DNA of 64,000 bases from a phage, in the sequence record OZ346222.1. One strand, 5' to 3'. Numbering within the stretch: the stretch's first letter is position 1; each line of letters opens with the position of its first letter. The notes beneath the pieces are model-generated. The model made no database searches and was not told where the DNA came from. It worked only from the letters and a program-made list of their open reading frames with translations. Shown piece after piece: positions 513 through 64,000 of the stretch. The translations under genes and the position numbers were made by a program.

Positions 513-881
513 ATGGAACAAATGAACGATCAAGAGTCGGTTGCGATGAACGAGCAAGAACAACCTCAAGAATTTTTCTTAGGGTTAAGTAAAGATCAAG
601 TGTCTCTTTTGCTAGTGCTTTCTTCTTTCATGGGAAGACTTCAGGAGCTCACACAACAACCGGAGGCTGAACAATTATTTCAGGCTCTGCGTGAAGAAGA
701 AAAATATCGTCGTTTGGACTATGCCTTAGGTTGGGTAGCTCAACAACGAGATATGCTGATGGCCCTCTCTGGGACCACAAGTTTTGCAATGGGCCTGTTG
801 GCTCAAGTTCAGGACAAATTAATTCAAGCAGGGTTTGCACACACGGCAAACACTAACGAAGAACAAGGAGACAAAGAATGA
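513..881 (+). CDS. hypothetical acidic protein (122 aa)
   Basis: Track ORF; GGAG RBS; stop overlaps next start (ATGA). Confidence 0.6.
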   Translation: MEQMNDQESVAMNEQEQPQEFFLGLSKDQVSLLLVLSSFMGRLQELTQQPEAEQLFQALREEEKYRRLDYALGWVAQQRDMLMALSGTTSFAMGLLAQVQDKLIQAGFAHTANTNEEQGDKE

Positions 882-2092
882 GCGTTATTCAACAATTCGC
901 TAACCCGATGAATCCGCGTGAAACTGTTTTACTGGCTCACGGCATGATTAAACGCGTCAGCATCAAGCCTATCAAAGGTGCTGATCCTACAACAGGTATT
1001 AAAACCACTGTGTGGCAAGGTAAGAAAATTGAATCCAGCCACACCATCTCTTTACTGATTTCTGAACTGGATTCCTCTGATAACCTACTTCAAGGTGGTG
1101 AAGAAGTTTGGATCAGTATGGGCGATAAGCTGCTTAAACCGGGTCATCAAGACTCTGTCTCTGTTAAAATTGATGACAAGTGGGAAACCGTAACGCCAGG
1201 ATGGATCGTAAATATTCCTTTGAAGGCAAACGAGCATAACGGTAAGACCTATTACAAAGGCTCACTGGCTAAGATGGTTAAGCTGGGTGTAGGAGAGGCT
1301 CCAGCAGCGACTCAGCAGCAAAAACAGCAACAAGGTGTACAATCACAAGGCCAGAAGCAGAATGCCAATCAGGACGTTTTACGCATCTATGGCGATGTGA
1401 CTCAGATTGTTGGCAACGTGGTTACTGTCAATGACCACAAGATTGGCGAAGGTGCTATGGTTGTCACCGATGAGCAGCTTAAAGATCTGGTGGTAGGTGG
1501 TCGTGTTGCAGCCATTGTTGACAAAGACACCGGAAACATTATCAGTGGTTTCAAAGCCTACCCCCCTAAGGCAGAGAACGGCACTCAAGGCTCCGGTGGC
1601 AAGCGTAAATCCTCTTACGACCCTATCGGTGTGGAAACGGGGCATAGCATCAATGCGTTGCAGATCATCCTGGATCGCGGGTTTAAGGTAGACGACCCAC
1701 TGGGCGTGGCTAAAACACTGCACGTAGTCACCATTGAGCTTAAGAAAGAGTATGCTCAGGCCACCAACCGAACTGAAGATGAAGTAGGTGCCAGTGTCGG
1801 TAATGCGGTGTTGAACGCTTGTCGCCGTATTGACAAGAAAACGAAAGTTGATGATTTTGCAGCGGCAATTACTGCAGAAGCAAAAGATGTCTTGACTAAT
1901 CTGGCTGAGCCGTTGTACGATTGGATCAAGAACGGTGCTGGGTCAACTGACCATCAAGAACCTCAGGCTACCAAACAGGAAGCAGCTCCACAGCAAAACA
2001 CTGTAGACGCTCCTCCTGTAAATGATGAGGAAGATGACCCAATGGATCAGAATCCAGCACAGTACTCCTTTGATGATGACATCCCTTTTTAA
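878..2092 (+). CDS. SSB-like protein with bacterial SSB-type C-terminal tip (DDDIPF)
   Basis: 404-aa track ORF, translationally coupled to upstream gene; Q-rich linker and acidic tail ending DDDIPF, the hallmark C-terminus of E. coli SSB; OB fold not verifiable by eye. Confidence 0.55.
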   Translation: MSVIQQFANPMNPRETVLLAHGMIKRVSIKPIKGADPTTGIKTTVWQGKKIESSHTISLLISELDSSDNLLQGGEEVWISMGDKLLKPGHQDSVSVKIDDKWETVTPGWIVNIPLKANEHNGKTYYKGSLAKMVKLGVGEAPAATQQQKQQQGVQSQGQKQNANQDVLRIYGDVTQIVGNVVTVNDHKIGEGAMVVTDEQLKDLVVGGRVAAIVDKDTGNIISGFKAYPPKAENGTQGSGGKRKSSYDPIGVETGHSINALQIILDRGFKVDDPLGVAKTLHVVTIELKKEYAQATNRTEDEVGASVGNAVLNACRRIDKKTKVDDFAAAITAEAKDVLTNLAEPLYDWIKNGAGSTDHQEPQATKQEAAPQQNTVDAPPVNDEEDDPMDQNPAQYSFDDDIPF

Positions 2093-2107
2093 CAATTAGT
2101 TAACATA

Positions 2108-2137
2108 GCCCTGCCCGAAAGGGTGGGGCATTTTTAT
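2108..2137 (+). terminator. intrinsic terminator
   Basis: GC stem (CCCTGCCC / GGGTGGGG) followed by TTTTT. Confidence 0.6.
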
Positions 2138-2154
2138 ATAAGGAGATCTGAAAA

Positions 2155-2571
2155 ATGACATTAGAAGATATCATTGTTAAACCTGAGAACTATGACCAAT
2201 ACAACCTGTCAACTCAATCTGTAGACCTTGGATGCGCCACGGTCAGTGCGTGGCCGGTTAACGGAAAAGAGCTAGATAAATGCTTAGAAGCTCACATGTC
2301 TATTAACAAGTTTCTGGATGAAAATACTCACTGGCTTGAGGGTGCAGGAGTATATGCTTCATGGTTGGAGAGTATGGGATTCGACTACCAATCTGAAGAA
2401 GGGTGGTGGAGCTATTTAGCTATCTGTCCAGAGACGCTACAATGCTTCATGAAATACTCTGAAGATTTAGAGTACCGGGCGGTGGTTGATAGTGCTATTG
2501 CCCGTTATAGCCGTAAACCTTTTTCCCACGACATTAAAACTGTGGAAGAGTTTGTTGAAGTTTTCTGTTGA
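2155..2571 (+). CDS. hypothetical protein (138 aa)
   Basis: Track ORF; AAGGAGA RBS. Confidence 0.6.
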   Translation: MTLEDIIVKPENYDQYNLSTQSVDLGCATVSAWPVNGKELDKCLEAHMSINKFLDENTHWLEGAGVYASWLESMGFDYQSEEGWWSYLAICPETLQCFMKYSEDLEYRAVVDSAIARYSRKPFSHDIKTVEEFVEVFC

Positions 2572-2596
2572 CACAGGTTGAAAGGTGTGCAATTAT
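2568..2596 (+). promoter_or_regulatory. sigma70-like promoter
   Basis: TTGACA, 17-nt spacer, AATTAT; overlaps stop of upstream gene. Confidence 0.4.
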
Positions 2597-2667
2597 AACT
2601 TCATATGACTGGAGGACGTGATGAACGAAGAAAACTGGGATGTATAACTAACAGGAGGCCACTGCCC

Positions 2668-2865
2668 ATGATTTATCGAATCCGTGTAAGAGAAGATGCA
2701 CCAGGCTGTTACTTTGACTGGCGTGGGTGGTGGTTTCTCCACCCAATGGATGGACTCACAGATAGAATGCTGGATGCTGCCCTTTATACAGATACCGACA
2801 TAGAGTATAATCTCTATCTGAAGGACGGTATAGATAACGGCCTGTTTGAAGCAATTCCTGTGTAA
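2668..2865 (+). CDS. hypothetical protein (65 aa)
   Basis: Track ORF 2605..2865 trimmed to the ATG that follows an AGGAGG RBS. Confidence 0.5.
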   Translation: MIYRIRVREDAPGCYFDWRGWWFLHPMDGLTDRMLDAALYTDTDIEYNLYLKDGIDNGLFEAIPV

Positions 2866-2933
2866 GAGACTGTGATAGCTATGTTTTATGATCTTCCTGT
2901 AGCGCCACCACCTGTTGAACCCGGAGAACTAAG

Positions 2934-3359
2934 ATGATCTATGAAATGCCAAAACTGATTCGTGACGATGCCCAAAACGCTCACACCATTATTATGGGCA
3001 AACGCATGGATATTATTTGTCATAAAGATTTCTGGGAAGGAAGTTACTTCACAGAGTATTTTGGTAAACTGGATAATGGTCTGCTGATCCAGTTCTACAC
3101 CGATGCGGAAAACAACATTCCCTGGGAGTTCGAAACTGAAGATATTCATAAACTTTTCACCTTCCTCGATATTAAGGTTAAGGCCAAGTTTGAAGAGGGT
3201 GAGTGCGACGATTGTGGATTTTATGAGGTAACAGATTTCTATCTTCCAAGTGGTAAGAACCTTTACTATGAAAGCCACTTCGGTAACTCAAATATGCCAC
3301 AGTGCTGGACTGAGTTTTTTGAAATTGTGGAAGAGGAGCTGGCATATCGTGATTATTGA
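2934..3359 (+). CDS. hypothetical protein (141 aa)
   Basis: Track ORF; GGAGA RBS. Confidence 0.55.
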   Translation: MIYEMPKLIRDDAQNAHTIIMGKRMDIICHKDFWEGSYFTEYFGKLDNGLLIQFYTDAENNIPWEFETEDIHKLFTFLDIKVKAKFEEGECDDCGFYEVTDFYLPSGKNLYYESHFGNSNMPQCWTEFFEIVEEELAYRDY

Positions 3360-60742: not shown

Positions 60743-60817
60743 GCCCTGTTAGCTTAGTGGATAAAGCAGCGGCCTTCTAAGCCGTTGACACTGGTTCGAG
60801 TCCAGTACGGGGTGCCA
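60743..60817 (+). tRNA. tRNA-Arg (anticodon TCT)
   Basis: Manual fold: 7-bp acceptor with G-U pairs, anticodon loop CTTCTAA, T-loop TTCGAGT, 3' CCA encoded. Confidence 0.7.
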
Positions 60818-60821
60818 AATT

Positions 60822-60908
60822 GGGGAGTTATCCCGTAGAGGTAGCGGTGTAGACTGTAAATCTATTGTCATTGCGACTCGGGTGGTTCGACTCCACCACT
60901 CCCCACCA
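60822..60908 (+). tRNA. tRNA-Tyr (anticodon GTA), long variable arm
   Basis: Acceptor GGGGAGT/ACTCCCC, anticodon loop CTGTAAA, long extra arm, T-loop TTCGACT, CCA encoded. Confidence 0.75.
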
Positions 60909-61022
60909 AATTTATATTTTTAGATGCATAAATAATACAGATAATGGCATTGATATTTATCGTCGTTTATACTAGTCACTAACTGCTCGAAAATCAGTGT
61001 CATTATCAGTATAATTTATAAA

Positions 61023-61113
61023 GGAGGGTAGGGAGCAATGGTGCTCAAGCGGTATTGAAAACCGTCCCGTTGAGGATGACTCGATGATGGTTCGATTCCA
61101 TTACTCTCCGCCA
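61023..61113 (+). tRNA. tRNA-Ser (anticodon TGA), long variable arm
   Basis: Acceptor GGAGGGT/ACTCTCC, anticodon loop ATTGAAA, about 20-nt extra arm, T-loop TTCGATT, CCA encoded. Confidence 0.7.
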
Positions 61114-61211
61114 CATTGTTGACCTTGTAATTAAGCGAAAGCCGGAAGCAGAACCGGATTATCAAATGTTACAGTCGTCATCGCCGACTAGCAACATGGT
61201 CAACATACTGA

Positions 61212-61308
61212 GCTAGGTAAGCCCTTTGGCAAGGGCGAGGATTTTTAATCCTGAAAATAGACGAGGTAGTCGTTGAATACATAGGTGGTTCGATTCCATC
61301 ACCTAGCA
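61212..61308 (+). tRNA. atypical tRNA-like gene (possible anticodon TTT) with about 30-nt extra arm
   Basis: Acceptor GCTAGGT/ACCTAGC, D-arm GCCC/GGGC, 4-bp anticodon stem with loop TTTTTAA, T-arm GGTGG TTCGATT CCATC; no CCA; extra region too long for a canonical tRNA. Confidence 0.35.
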
Positions 61309-61315
61309 CCTTTTT

Positions 61316-61391
61316 GCTGATGTAGCACAATCGGTAGTGCAATTGATTTGTAATCAATAGGTTGTAGGTTCAAGTCCTGCCATCAGCACCA
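61316..61391 (+). tRNA. tRNA-Thr (anticodon TGT)
   Basis: Acceptor GCTGATG/CATCAGC, anticodon stem ATTGA/TCAAT with loop TTTGTAA, T-loop TTCAAGT, CCA encoded. Confidence 0.75.
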
Positions 61392-61392
61392 A

Positions 61393-61467
61393 GGCCCTGT
61401 AGCTGGAAGGTTCAAGCAAGCGACTCATAATCGCCAGACGGTGGTTCAATTCCACCCAGGGCCACCA
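61393..61467 (+). tRNA. tRNA-Met or Ile2 (anticodon CAT), elongator type
   Basis: Acceptor GGCCCTG/CAGGGCC (G1-C72 paired), anticodon loop CTCATAA, T-loop TTCAATT, CCA encoded. Confidence 0.7.
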
Positions 61468-61478
61468 AATAGTAAATA

Positions 61479-61555
61479 CTCCGCGTAGCTCAGCTTGGTA
61501 GAGCGCCTGATTTGGGATCAGGAGGTCGAGTGTTCGAATCACTCCGTGGAGACCA
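61479..61555 (+). tRNA. tRNA-Pro (anticodon TGG)
   Basis: Acceptor CTCCGCG/CGTGGAG, anticodon stem CCTGA/TCAGG with loop TTTGGGA, T-loop TTCGAAT, CCA encoded. Confidence 0.75.
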
Positions 61556-61976: not shown

Positions 61977-62375
61977 ATGATTTCAGTTTTAACATGGCTG
62001 AGCAGGTATAAAGGGATCATAAAAGGTTTAGTTTTTGCAGCTGCGATAGGTACAGCTTATCTTGGGGCCGTGTATTGGTTTAACTCTAAGCTTAATGATG
62101 CCTACCAAGAAGGTGTGTCAGCAACAGAGTTAAAGTGGGAACGGATCCTTGATCAGCAACAAAAGCAGGCCGACAAAATTAAAATGGGCCACGCAGAGGA
62201 GGTTAAAAACCTTGAAAAATCCCTTTCTGATCTGCAGGATAAATTAAATATAGCTGAGAAGGCAGGTAAAGAAAAGCAGATTATCTACCTCCAGTCACCT
62301 GAAGGCAAGAAGTCAACACTTCCTGATCAGCTTATAGATATTTATAATGAGAGTATCAATCAGGAGGATCAATGA
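61977..62375 (+). CDS. i-spanin (Rz-like): N-terminal TM anchor plus periplasmic coiled coil
   Basis: Track ORF; TM helix LVFAAAIGTAYLGAVYWF then charged helical region; stop overlaps next start. Confidence 0.55.
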   Translation: MISVLTWLSRYKGIIKGLVFAAAIGTAYLGAVYWFNSKLNDAYQEGVSATELKWERILDQQQKQADKIKMGHAEEVKNLEKSLSDLQDKLNIAEKAGKEKQIIYLQSPEGKKSTLPDQLIDIYNESINQEDQ

Positions 62376-62659
62376 GAGTTGCTACACTGTTTATTGTGTG
62401 CTTGTTATTATGTGGGTGTGCAACCAGCGTTGAGAGAGAATACAAGATTGACCCTCCTGATGTAGGAAGGTTGATTGTTAAACCCCCGGAAGGTGCCATG
62501 AAACCACCTGCTAAAGCTATGCCTTTGAAGAAAGGTGCGCCAGATGCAGTGAATTCTGGCATTATGAGGGATAATAATCTGTCTTGTAGCAATGATAGAG
62601 CTAAATTGATCATTTTGCAAGACTATATTAGAACACTTTTTCCAAAGGAGAGAGGTTAA
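62372..62659 (+). CDS. o-spanin (Rz1-like) outer-membrane lipoprotein
   Basis: Track ORF; signal peptide with Cys cluster LLLCGCAT (non-canonical lipobox) and proline-rich mature region PPDVGRLIVKPPEGAMKPPAKAMP. Confidence 0.5.
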   Translation: MRVATLFIVCLLLCGCATSVEREYKIDPPDVGRLIVKPPEGAMKPPAKAMPLKKGAPDAVNSGIMRDNNLSCSNDRAKLIILQDYIRTLFPKERG

Positions 62660-63087
62660 TGTCTAAGATTTACGGACCGTGTTCTGAAAAGCAGAAGATG
62701 ATCCTAGAAAACGATGCAGATATTTTGGTAATCGGCGGTGCCGCAGGGTCTGGCAAGTCGTTCCTCTTGCAATTGATGCCACTTAAAATTATTGATGACC
62801 CCCACAGCTCTGTGGTTATGTTCCGAAGAACAACCCCACAGTTGGAAGGTGAGGGTGGATTATGGCCTAAAGCAGTAGCTATTTATAGTGATCTGCCTGA
62901 AAACATTAAGCCAAAGTTTAGAGAGAAGGATCATAAGTTCATTTTTCCACGGTTTGATCCGAACACTGGCAAGTGGGATAGAAGCAAAAAGGGAGCTGTT
63001 GTAAAATACTGCCACATGGAGTATGTACAAGATAAGCTTAACCATCAGGGGCTTGAGTACACCATGGTTTGCTTCGATGAGGGTTAA
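62659..63087 (+). CDS. terminase large subunit, 5' exon (ATPase domain through Walker B)
   Basis: Track ORF; Walker A ILVIGGAAGSGKSFL and Walker B TMVCFDE, frame closes immediately after Walker B where intron sequence begins. Confidence 0.65.
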   Translation: MSKIYGPCSEKQKMILENDADILVIGGAAGSGKSFLLQLMPLKIIDDPHSSVVMFRRTTPQLEGEGGLWPKAVAIYSDLPENIKPKFREKDHKFIFPRFDPNTGKWDRSKKGAVVKYCHMEYVQDKLNHQGLEYTMVCFDEG

Positions 63088-63985
63088 TTTGTAGCTCTCG
63101 TAAAACCTCCCTAATTGCGGGGAAATCTTTATTATTGACACCACCAACCTGTCATGGTAACATGACAGAGGCTTCGAAGAGAGATCGAAGGTATGGTAAC
63201 AGTGTGTTAATTTAGATAATCCGCAGCGAAGCATCCGAGAGGATGAACGTTCAACGACTAGTCGAAAGACGTAGAATCAAGCGATTCGAAACGGGAGGGT
63301 GAATGTGTAATACTAAGAAATGTATGGATTGCCAAAGAGTTCTACCTATTGATGATTTCTTTTTATCATCTAAGAGCAAGGATGGATACTCAGGTACATG
63401 CAAGGAATGCTATATGTACTACAGGAAGGGTGGATCTCGTAAAAACAAAAATATGGTTAAGAGAGATGATGCAGCATTGTTTATTCAAGACTTGCTGAAG
63501 AAAGGTGAACTTTTTGAATGCAAATCTTGTCATGAAAGTATGCTCGCTGATAGTTTTTACACAAAACGTGACTATGGTAAAGTATATCTGGTTACGAACA
63601 GGTGTAAGATGTGTGAAAAGTTTTATCAGATTGAGAAGAAATTTCACATAACAAAAGATGAATACTATCGTCTACTCTCAGATCAAGATCATAAGTGTGC
63701 CATTTGTAGAATATCCCTTGATGAGTATAGGACGCAAGGGTATAGAGATTTCTTTTGTGTTGATCATGACCATAAAACTGGTGCTGTAAGAGGGTTGCTT
63801 TGTGATAAATGCAACAGAGCTTTAGGTTTCTTCCAAGAGGATGAGGAAACTATTCTTAGAGCGGCAGAGTATTTACACATTCATAAGATATAGTCTGGTC
63901 TGCATGGAGACATGCAGCTGCCTGAAAATGGCGGGGCAAGACTAGCGACCTTGCCCGAACATAAACGACACAATTCGAATGGGAG
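63088..63985 (+). mobile_element. group I self-splicing intron with internal homing endonuclease ORF (boundaries approximate, 3' end not resolved)
   Basis: Core elements P AATTGCGGGGAAA (about 63113), Q AATCCGCAGC (about 63218), R GTTCAACGACTAGTC (about 63249), S-like AAGACTAGCGACC (about 63938). Confidence 0.6.
63303..63893 (+). CDS. HNH / endonuclease VII-type homing endonuclease (intron-encoded)
   Basis: Track ORF; GGAGGG RBS; CVDHDHKTGAVRGLLCDKCNRALGFF core motif plus N-terminal Cys-rich zinc-binding segments. Confidence 0.75.
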   Translation: MCNTKKCMDCQRVLPIDDFFLSSKSKDGYSGTCKECYMYYRKGGSRKNKNMVKRDDAALFIQDLLKKGELFECKSCHESMLADSFYTKRDYGKVYLVTNRCKMCEKFYQIEKKFHITKDEYYRLLSDQDHKCAICRISLDEYRTQGYRDFFCVDHDHKTGAVRGLLCDKCNRALGFFQEDEETILRAAEYLHIHKI

Positions 63986-64000
63986 CAGATAGACTACCTG

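Follow-up and report, generated by a model that had tools for sequence, protein, structure and literature searches.

A probable mobile group I intron with an endonuclease VII-type homing endonuclease in the large terminase gene of an rV5-like phage

Introduction

What interrupts the gene for the large terminase subunit (TerL) in the phage of sequence record OZ346222.1 so soon after its Walker B motif? The stretch analysed here, called the window throughout, comprises 64,000 nucleotides (nt) of this record, and TerL lies at its downstream end. As called, the TerL open reading frame (ORF, 62659-63087) matches Pfam Terminase_6N, contains Walker A (GGAAGSGKS, 62734-62760) and Walker B (MVCFDE, 63064-63081) and closes after 142 amino acids (aa) at an in-frame UAA (63085-63087). 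An original prediction, made from the letters of the DNA alone, had pointed out this frame with its two motifs and its early closure, and had ascribed the closure to a group I intron that harbours a homing endonuclease. The present analysis bears this out through intron-less relatives, a score of 84.9 bits for an ORF-less allele in phage rV5, covariation of the helices and the location of the endonuclease gene in the P8 loop. We put the probability at about 95 % that window positions 63085-63967 are a mobile group I intron, inserted in TerL after Walker B and carrying an endonuclease VII (Endo VII)-type homing endonuclease in the loop of P8.

From 62600 to 64000 the window matches MZ501093, the record of Escherichia phage MaxBurger, at 100 % identity. 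MaxBurger belongs to the BASEL collection (Maffei et al. 2021) and is an rV5-like myovirus in the genus Vequintavirus; about 30 further rV5-like phages are 98–99.9 % identical over the same region. Adding 61976 to a MaxBurger position gives the window position, with 0 mismatches across the first 2024 bases of the MaxBurger record.

The TerL intron is already known: it is annotated for MaxBurger, published for the type phage rV5, and an orthologue of its endonuclease has been placed in the DHHRN family. In the MaxBurger record, TerL is a join of two pieces (683..3113) with a ‘putative homing endonuclease’ between them at 1327..1917, corresponding to 63303..63893 of the window. In rV5 (NC_011041, ORF64ABC) TerL is annotated as a three-exon join, and the genome paper (Kropinski et al. 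2013, PMC3606486) devotes a section, ‘Introns in terminase’, to the subject and acknowledges help from David Shub in finding the intron. The DHHRN family of homing endonucleases was defined around F-CphI by Fang et al. 2018 (PMC6083498), who count the Endo VII-motif protein of phage JES2013 (‘Escherichia phage 2 JES-2013’) among the intron-encoded members of the homing-endonuclease clade. Since JES2013 is 98.6 % identical to the TerL-intron region of the window, the orthologue of the endonuclease has thus already been classified. Two points may be undescribed, namely the placement of the translation signals of the endonuclease inside P3 and P8, and the clustering of insertion sites around Walker B; neither alters the classification of the intron.

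Boundaries and splice sites

The boundaries are established directly by alleles in which the gene is whole. Phage MaxTheCat has an uninterrupted TerL of 515 codons, and its alignment to MaxBurger leaves an insertion of exactly 883 nt, which reads ...GAT GAG GGT, then TAATTTGTAGCTCTC...GAACATAAACG, then ACA CAA TTC GAA TGG... (GGT meets TAATTT at one end and AAACG meets ACACAA at the other). Intron-less relatives pin the insertion point between GAU GAG GGU and ACA CAA, i.e., behind GGU (G142), the last codon of exon 1 and one codon beyond MVCFDE, so that the proposed interruption right after Walker B is confirmed. The exact register was set by the group I rules, under which U precedes the 5′ splice site and the intron ends in G; a single register satisfies both, and it places the intron at 63085-63967 and the first base of exon 2 at 63968. 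The 3′ exon had been expected to resume beyond about 63985, a position that the intron-less alleles correct by 17 nt.

Comparison of the joined exons with an intron-less homologue, one of the checks originally proposed, gave a terminase frame that continues downstream: the spliced translation is 515 aa long and identical to MaxTheCat TerL at 514 of 515 residues, I332V being the sole difference. Read in the frame of exon 1, the first intron codon is UAA, so that unspliced RNA would code for no more than the 142-aa fragment. Exon 2 has neither a start codon nor a ribosome-binding site at 63968. An intein was considered as the cause of the interruption and rejected, as it demands in-frame translation and the frame of exon 1 stops at once.

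At the 5′ splice site, the internal guide sequence (63092-63101) pairs with 63077-63086, made up of AUGAGGGU from the exon and UA from the intron, in a P1 of 10 base pairs (bp). Within it GAGGGU of the exon faces GCUCUC of the guide, and U63084 and G63094 make the U-G wobble at the splice site; the other end of the intron is the terminal G63967 (omega-G). The base at position -1 is U in all seven intron-bearing alleles and C in all eight intron-less alleles, a synonymous change from GGC to GGU, and it is the sole base strictly linked to the intron among the alleles examined. Exon 2 positions +3 and +6 (A, A vs G, G) were tried as further strict markers and discarded, as ACG CAA is found both in L027, which bears the intron, and in three phages that lack it.

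The ribozyme core

The search with a covariance model that had been recommended gave a match. On a 1.4-kb stretch the Rfam group I intron model RF00028 matches 63075-63917 end to end at 48.7 bits (E = 5.5e-11), and it gives 55.8 bits for the intron at the same site in L028 and 84.9 bits (E = 1e-20) for the rV5 allele of this intron, which lacks the ORF. The score in the window is low because the 562-nt loop of P8, with its ORF, is penalised. The elements P, Q and R, predicted to lie downstream of the terminase frame, are found there (Table 1). An S-like element is also present as foreseen, but it does not follow the ORF, whose last codons it overlaps.

Six same-site introns with trimmed P8 loops (MaxBurger, L006, rV5, L025, L028 and L031B) were aligned for an analysis of covariation. 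From this alignment RNAalifold, which has no knowledge of group I introns, returned P1, P3, P4, P5 with a three-helix extension, P6/P6a, P7.1/P7.2, P8, P9, P9.1 and P9.2, and hence the P1–P9 fold that a group I intron was predicted to have; P7 was added by hand as a pseudoknot before pairs were counted. In these six sequences, four of which are close relatives and from which the tested structure was itself derived, 97.7 % of the pairing cells can pair, vs 33–41 % when partners are slid by 1–3 columns, and compensatory changes occur in 32 of 100 pairs vs 2–6 after sliding; none of 500 shuffles reached the observed values. Six of the eight pairs of P7.1/P7.2, situated between P7 and the 3′ strand of P3, show compensatory changes. 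The P8 stems of MaxBurger, rV5, L028 and L031B are wholly different yet pair in each case, as does that of L025. Folded by itself, the ORF-trimmed MaxBurger intron adopts the same helices with z = -7.8 relative to shuffled sequences. The P9.2 loop ACUAGCGAC is conserved and P2 is absent. Extra P7.1/P7.2 hairpins between P7 and the 3′ strand of P3 are a hallmark of subgroup IA, the usual type in phages, and their presence suggests that this intron belongs to it.

The fold also bears on another way of reading the locus. Several GenBank records of this phage group list two separate ‘putative large terminase subunit’ coding sequences (CDSs) with the endonuclease between them, as would suit a truly split TerL with a free-standing endonuclease, in which 142-aa and 373-aa polypeptides are made separately from unspliced RNA and then assembled, as happens with some phage genes that homing-endonuclease insertions have split. 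A split gene would not be expected to contain an insert that matches the group I covariance model with covarying helices, nor one bounded exactly by a U-G wobble and a terminal G; the second polypeptide would have to be started where exon 2 offers no initiation signals; and the 319-nt version without any ORF, at the same site in rV5, is inexplicable by an endonuclease. We consider a split TerL very improbable and continue with the group I intron.

Table 1. Coordinates of the features of the TerL intron region in the window, followed by two further insertion sites in related TerL genes
Feature	Position	Strand	Basis or remark
TerL exon 1, 142 codons	62659..63084	+	ORF list, Pfam Terminase_6N, motif positions, comparison with intron-less MaxTheCat
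Group I intron, 883 nt	63085..63967	+	ends from intron-less alleles; RF00028 match
P1 hairpin	63077..63101	+	Rfam alignment; RNAalifold and pair counts
P3 5′ strand CCUCCC, partner 63293-63298	63106..63111	+	compensatory changes in 2 of 6 pairs
P element AAUUGCGGGGAAA	63113-63125	+	read from sequence
P4 (63116-63121 with 63220-63225; classical P and Q elements)	63113..63227	+	Rfam alignment; minimum free energy fold; helices 3-8
P5 and three-helix P5 extension (63125-63216), enclosed by P4	63113..63227	+	helices 3-8
Q element AAUCCGCAGC	63218-63227	+	read from sequence
P6/P6a hairpin GCG...CAUCC GAGA GGAUG...CGU	63226..63250	+	helices 9-10, invariant: neither for nor against the fold
R element GUUCAACGACUA, including P7 5′ strand GACUA (63256-63260)	63249-63260	+	pairs in 6 of 6 sequences, invariant
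P7.1 GUC-GAAA-GAC	63261-63270	+	helices 12-14, covering P7.1 and P7.2
P7.2 GAAUC-AAGC-GAUUC	63274-63287	+	helices 12-14, covering P7.1 and P7.2
P3 3′ strand GGGAGG	63293..63298	+	sequence; helix 2
P8 5′ strand GAAUGUGUAA	63301..63310	+	exact reverse complement of 63873-63882
Intron-encoded endonuclease gene, 196 aa	63303..63893	+	ORF list; PF02945; PDB matches; GenBank ‘putative homing endonuclease’
P8 3′ strand UUACACAUUC, coding near the endonuclease C-terminus	63873..63882	+	helix 15
S element AAGAUAUAGUC, including P7 3′ strand UAGUC (63891-63895)	63885-63895	+	sequence; Rfam alignment; helix 11
P9 (63900-63917), P9.1 (~63918-63934), P9.2 (~63934-63956)	63900..63956	+	helices 16-18, compensatory changes in 8 of 18 pairs
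TerL exon 2 start	63968..64000, continues beyond the window end	+	ACA CAA UUC GAA UGG ... = TQFEWEQIDYL
Site between D and E of Walker B			Pectobacterium phage CB7; L018
Site after (Y/H)QG	9-11 codons upstream		L019; second intron of L031

A sigma-70-like sequence, TTGACA-17-TAACAT with a TG extended -10 and 10 of 12 matches, lies at 63135-63163 in the P5 extension, upstream of the endonuclease ORF. A promoter and terminator scan of 62300-64000 yielded 8 sigma-70-like sites vs 4.5 ± 2.3 expected, which is not significant. This sequence was rejected as a promoter for the endonuclease gene: its conservation is explained by RNA structure, its -10 coincides with a conserved GUAA hairpin loop, and the match may be coincidental.

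The endonuclease and its place in the ribozyme

An ORF with an Endo VII/HNH signature had been noted at the outset, and its 196-aa product, which contains VDHDHKTGAVRGLLCDKCN, indeed matches Pfam Endonuclease_7 (PF02945) with E = 2e-21 and 76.1 bits against a cut-off of 23.6. The closest solved structures are those of the restriction enzyme Hpy99I (E = 9.6e-6, residues 57-192) and of T4 endonuclease VII (E = 5.7e-4). Residues C132/C135, D154, H155, H157, R163, C167/C170 and N171 align to C23/C26, D40, H41, H43, R54, C58/C61 and N62 of T4 Endo VII, and the catalytic and zinc-ligand residues are invariant in nine homologues. The protein thus has the complete D, H, H, R, N set together with the CX2-4C and CX2C zinc ligands, whose roles in the Endo VII motif are described in PMC6083498, and on these sequence features it is an Endo VII-type (DHHRN) His-Me nuclease. 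Two additional CxxC...CxxC modules precede the motif (C7/C10 with C33/C36; C73/C76 with C100/C103). They are probably zinc-binding modules for DNA recognition, by analogy with the Hpy99I repeats (PMC2699513).

F-CphI of cyanophage S-PM2 resembles the MaxBurger protein in its Endo VII motif, its D/H/H/R/N residues and its two CxxC zinc ligand pairs (PMC6083498). The two differ in that F-CphI is free-standing beside an intron and targets psbA, whereas the MaxBurger protein is intron-encoded, has TerL as its putative target and possesses the two extra Cys4 modules.

The gene had been placed in a peripheral loop of the intron, and this loop is that of P8, whose stem GAAUGUGUAA/UUACACAUUC consists of 10 perfect pairs. 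Gene and ribozyme share sequence at both ends of the ORF. The AUG of the endonuclease (63303-63305) is inside the 5′ strand of P8, and 4 nt before it the 3′ strand of P3 supplies the Shine-Dalgarno sequence GGAGG. At the other end, the final codons cross the 3′ strand of P8 and J8/7, and the ORF ends at UAG (63891-63893) within the 3′ strand of P7. The same-site introns of L028 and L031 are organised in this way too. Their endonucleases are only 55 % and 71 % identical to that of MaxBurger, and their P8 stems (AUUUAUG/CGUAAAU and AUAUUUGCGUA/UACGCAAAUAU, respectively) are quite unlike its own; for L031 the layout requires a UUG start in place of the called upstream AUG. The stop UAA of L028 stands just before the 3′ strand of P7 (before the conserved GAUAUAGUC), while that of L031 is inside it, as in the window.

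In rV5, an 18-nt hairpin (AAGCGA-UUGUUG-UCGCUU) takes the place of the whole ORF-bearing P8 between identical flanks, GGGU and AUAAGAUAUAG. The ORF-less intron is therefore not a simple deletion of the ORF, a possibility that was rejected since both arms of the P8 stem differ and the entire hairpin has been exchanged. As the hairpin is swapped as a whole, ORF and stem behave as one cassette.

Judged by this geometry, folding of P3, P8 and P7 would hide the translation signals of the endonuclease, and ribosomes on the ORF would in turn unfold the core. Splicing and translation of the endonuclease should then be mutually exclusive on one and the same RNA molecule.

Distribution and signs of transfer

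Exon 1 matches about 118 Vequintavirus-like GenBank records, 53 of which carry the 5′ half of the intron at ≥95 % identity. The intron with its ORF is found in 30 records and the ORF-less intron in about 23, and about 65 of the approximately 118 records have no intron. Going by the length of their alignments, JohannBauhin and LL12 are apparently among the carriers of the ORF-less intron. The core of the rV5 intron is 97–99 % identical to that of the window.

A signature of horizontal transfer is directly visible in L006 (IMGVR_UViG_3300010279_000001). Compared with MaxBurger, L006 diverges by 13.6 % in exon 1 (58 of 426 nt), by 2.7 % in the intron and by 3.4 % in exon 2; going outwards from the junctions, the first exon mismatches are met after 16 nt on the upstream side and after 30 nt on the downstream side. 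This jump fits the pattern expected of targeted transfer with short co-conversion tracts. L028 and L031, whose TerL proteins are about 65–73 % identical, have orthologous endonucleases in introns at exactly the same codon boundary. Together, the presence/absence polymorphism and the discontinuity of divergence at the junctions point to a mobile intron.

These distributions also speak to the function of the endonuclease. It might be a packaging accessory factor rather than a homing enzyme, comparable to the terminase-stimulating HNH proteins of HK97-like phages; the CB7 paper (PMC7344957), citing Kala et al. 2014, raises the idea of such a role for terminase-associated HNH genes, and the gene does adjoin TerL. 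However, the ORF is dispensable, with about 23 near-identical phages having the intron without it and about 65 having neither, and in L006 a 1-nt insertion shifts its frame and truncates the product to 89 aa (L006 1835-2426). Moreover, orthologues move with the intron into diverged TerL genes, and the family falls into the homing/restriction clade of Endo VII-motif proteins (PMC6083498). A packaging factor is hardly credible on this evidence, and a homing endonuclease is the reading retained here.

The ORF-less and frameshifted versions, together with the truncated relatives P0004 (132 aa) and P0006 (115 aa), invite a different question, namely whether a real group I intron has here an inactive, decaying passenger late in its homing cycle, its distribution reflecting vertical descent and ordinary recombination; the homing activity of the ORF product is, after all, a prediction. 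In the window, however, the ORF is intact and keeps all catalytic and zinc-binding residues. Codon changes relative to two relatives are mostly synonymous (7:1 and 14:4 synonymous to non-synonymous), so that the ORF appears to be under purifying selection. In addition, the fall from 13.6 % divergence in the exon to 2.7 % in the intron within 16 nt of the junction of L006 fits targeted transfer. Decay is thus unlikely, if less so than the two explanations rejected above, and an intact homing endonuclease in a mobile intron is preferred.

Among otherwise near-identical BASEL phages that can be cultured on E. coli K-12, the three natural alleles (intron with ORF, ORF-less intron and no intron) coexist. 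This trio is a convenient system in which to measure Endo VII-type homing and to test whether ribozyme folding gates translation of the endonuclease. The immediate practical use is in annotation, as many records of the group still split the terminase in two or call the endonuclease ‘recombination endonuclease VII’. That the default threshold of Rfam misses the ORF-bearing copy of the intron matters in this respect as well.

A model for splicing and homing

Splicing catalysis, the activity and target of the endonuclease, and the interplay between translation and folding are predicted here from sequence. In the TerL pre-mRNA, the exon end GAGGGU would pair with the guide GCUCUC to form P1 while the P3–P9 core folds. 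A free guanosine bound in P7 would then attack after U63084, and the freed 3′-OH of the exon would attack after the terminal G63967, joining GAU GAG GGU to ACA CAA and restoring the 515-aa TerL. The expected ligated junction reads GAUGAGGGU followed by ACACAAUUC, in a product 883 nt shorter than the precursor. In mixed infections, the enzyme would cut intron-less TerL alleles near the boundary between TTCGATGAGGGC and ACGCAGTTCGAATGG, a candidate target being TTCGATGAGGGCACGCAGTTCGAATGG in the TerL of MaxTheCat. Repair off the intron-bearing allele would copy the intron in, and the flanking conversion tracts would be very short.

Splicing of the MaxBurger intron receives indirect support from two sides: MaxBurger, which depends on TerL, was isolated as a viable phage, and the TerL intron of Pectobacterium phage CB7, a relative of the MaxBurger intron, splices in vivo (PMC7344957).

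Several observations weigh against the group I intron model or limit how far it reaches. The RF00028 score in the window falls 1.3 bits short of the gathering cut-off of 50, and a scan of the whole window at the gathering threshold reported tRNAs only and missed the intron, which surfaces solely when a short stretch is searched with an E-value threshold. P4, P6 and P7 are without variation in the six aligned introns and covariation is uninformative there; the small number and the kinship of these introns, as well as the derivation of the structure from their own alignment, also count on this side. P10 is weak, with about three pairs that can be drawn (A63968-U63092, C63969-G63091 and A63970-U63090), and was omitted from the tested structure. 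Experimental splicing enters by analogy, having been obtained for the CB7 intron only, which is inserted 6 nt upstream and contains an unrelated HNH ORF. Finally, the coupling between folding and translation is read from the geometry alone.

Related introns around Walker B

In the TerL segment that encodes Walker B, related introns of the IA type are inserted at no fewer than three staggered sites in a span of about 33 nt: after (Y/H)QG, between D and E, and after DEG, the last being the MaxBurger site. The metagenomic phage L031 has two introns that are split by an exon of only 33 nt (11 codons). The 3′ domains of the introns of L018 and L019 are similar to that of MaxBurger. That the Walker B segment is a hot spot for introns and, jointly with this, that the P3/P8/P7 layout serves as a switch between ribozyme folding and endonuclease translation is a tentative proposal, with the odds leaning somewhat against it.

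CB7 (Certrevirus, Vequintavirinae) offers the closest experimental parallel, as its TerL intron splices in infected cells according to reverse transcription PCR and Sanger sequencing (PMC7344957). Like the MaxBurger intron it interrupts the Walker B region of a homologous TerL (51–60 % aa identity), and the two share a 3′ domain of P9, P9.1 and P9.2 with a UAGCGAC loop and a 3′ end of the form ...GAACAxAAAxG. They differ in that the CB7 intron, which scores just 35.2 bits with Rfam, is inserted between D and E of Walker B, and its ORF is unrelated (tblastn E = 3.5) and apparently located upstream of the R element, possibly, by reading the sequence, in the loop of P6. With another site and another ORF, CB7 was set aside as direct proof for the MaxBurger intron and kept as an analogy.

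The first TerL intron of rV5 is the same intron at the same site; it differs in being ORF-less, 319 nt long and equipped with its own P8 hairpin, and in the company of a second TerL intron that MaxBurger does not have. This second intron (about 980 nt, L003 4122-5100) lies 317 nt downstream and encodes an HNH_3 protein with a helix-turn-helix. It is present in rV5 and in L011 (1520-2499), its presence is independent of that of the first intron, and it scores just 35.2 bits with Rfam.

Introns of subgroup IA2 with homing-endonuclease ORFs are also known from the td, nrdB and sunY genes of T4 and from Staphylococcus phage Twort. They have in common with the MaxBurger intron P7.1/P7.2, an in-frame stop just inside the intron, an ORF looped out from a peripheral helix, and presence/absence polymorphism. 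Differences concern the host genes, which serve nucleotide metabolism rather than encode a terminase, the endonucleases, which are of the GIY-YIG or HNH rather than the Endo VII type, and P2, which the MaxBurger intron does not have. The first group I intron reported from a large terminase gene (PMC3606486) interrupts the same kind of gene as the MaxBurger intron; its phage, a siphovirus with a Gram-positive host, is unrelated to MaxBurger.

The P9.2 loop, (A/U)UAGCGA(C/U), is largely kept across three insertion sites (63941-63949 in the window; L018, L019, L028, L031 and CB7) on stems that differ. L028 and L018 are exceptions with UAACGA. On sequence grounds this conservation may reflect a tertiary contact.

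Several selfish elements share the TerL genes of L031 (1385-3681; Logan SRR30536706) and L028 (1951-5127; Logan ERR5001971). Both contain an in-frame insert in Walker A between GGAAG and SGKS, which begins with CLSKDHEVLTP and ends with TGN; the L031 insert is 233 aa long, that of L028 149 aa. A Pfam search with these inserts matched no intein family; their terminal motifs alone make them look intein-like. In L028 yet another intron, which contains an HNH_3 ORF, interrupts TerL near codon 279.

Outside this group, Vibrio phage vB_VibM_10AMN (OR472329; L004 2694-3033 and 4662-4874) has two group I introns of 68.9 and 71.5 bits between CDSs annotated as ‘hypothetical protein’. The first includes a 34-nt stretch 97 % identical to the 3′ strand of P7 and the P9 hairpin of the window.

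Neighbouring genes and record labels

About 18 GenBank records labelled ‘Campylobacter phage’ (MG0656xx; host C. jejuni; some UNVERIFIED) match E. coli Vequintavirus at >97 % identity over this region, an example being L025 (MG065690, 136771-140008). Either the host labels are wrong or the samples were contaminated, probably.

Upstream of TerL, the genes for the i-spanin (61977-62375) and the o-spanin (62372-62659) overlap one another, and the stop codon of the o-spanin gene overlaps the start codon of TerL (GGTTAATG), an arrangement that suggests translational coupling into TerL. Just upstream of this spanin-terminase block lies a cluster of seven tRNA genes (60743-61555), comprising Arg-TCT, Tyr-GTA, Ser-TGA, Thr-TGT, Met-CAT, Pro-TGG and one odd gene. 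The latter (61212-61310, 99 nt) is reported by ARAGORN as ‘tRNA-???’ with a 4-base anticodon and reaches just 35.5 bits with Rfam.

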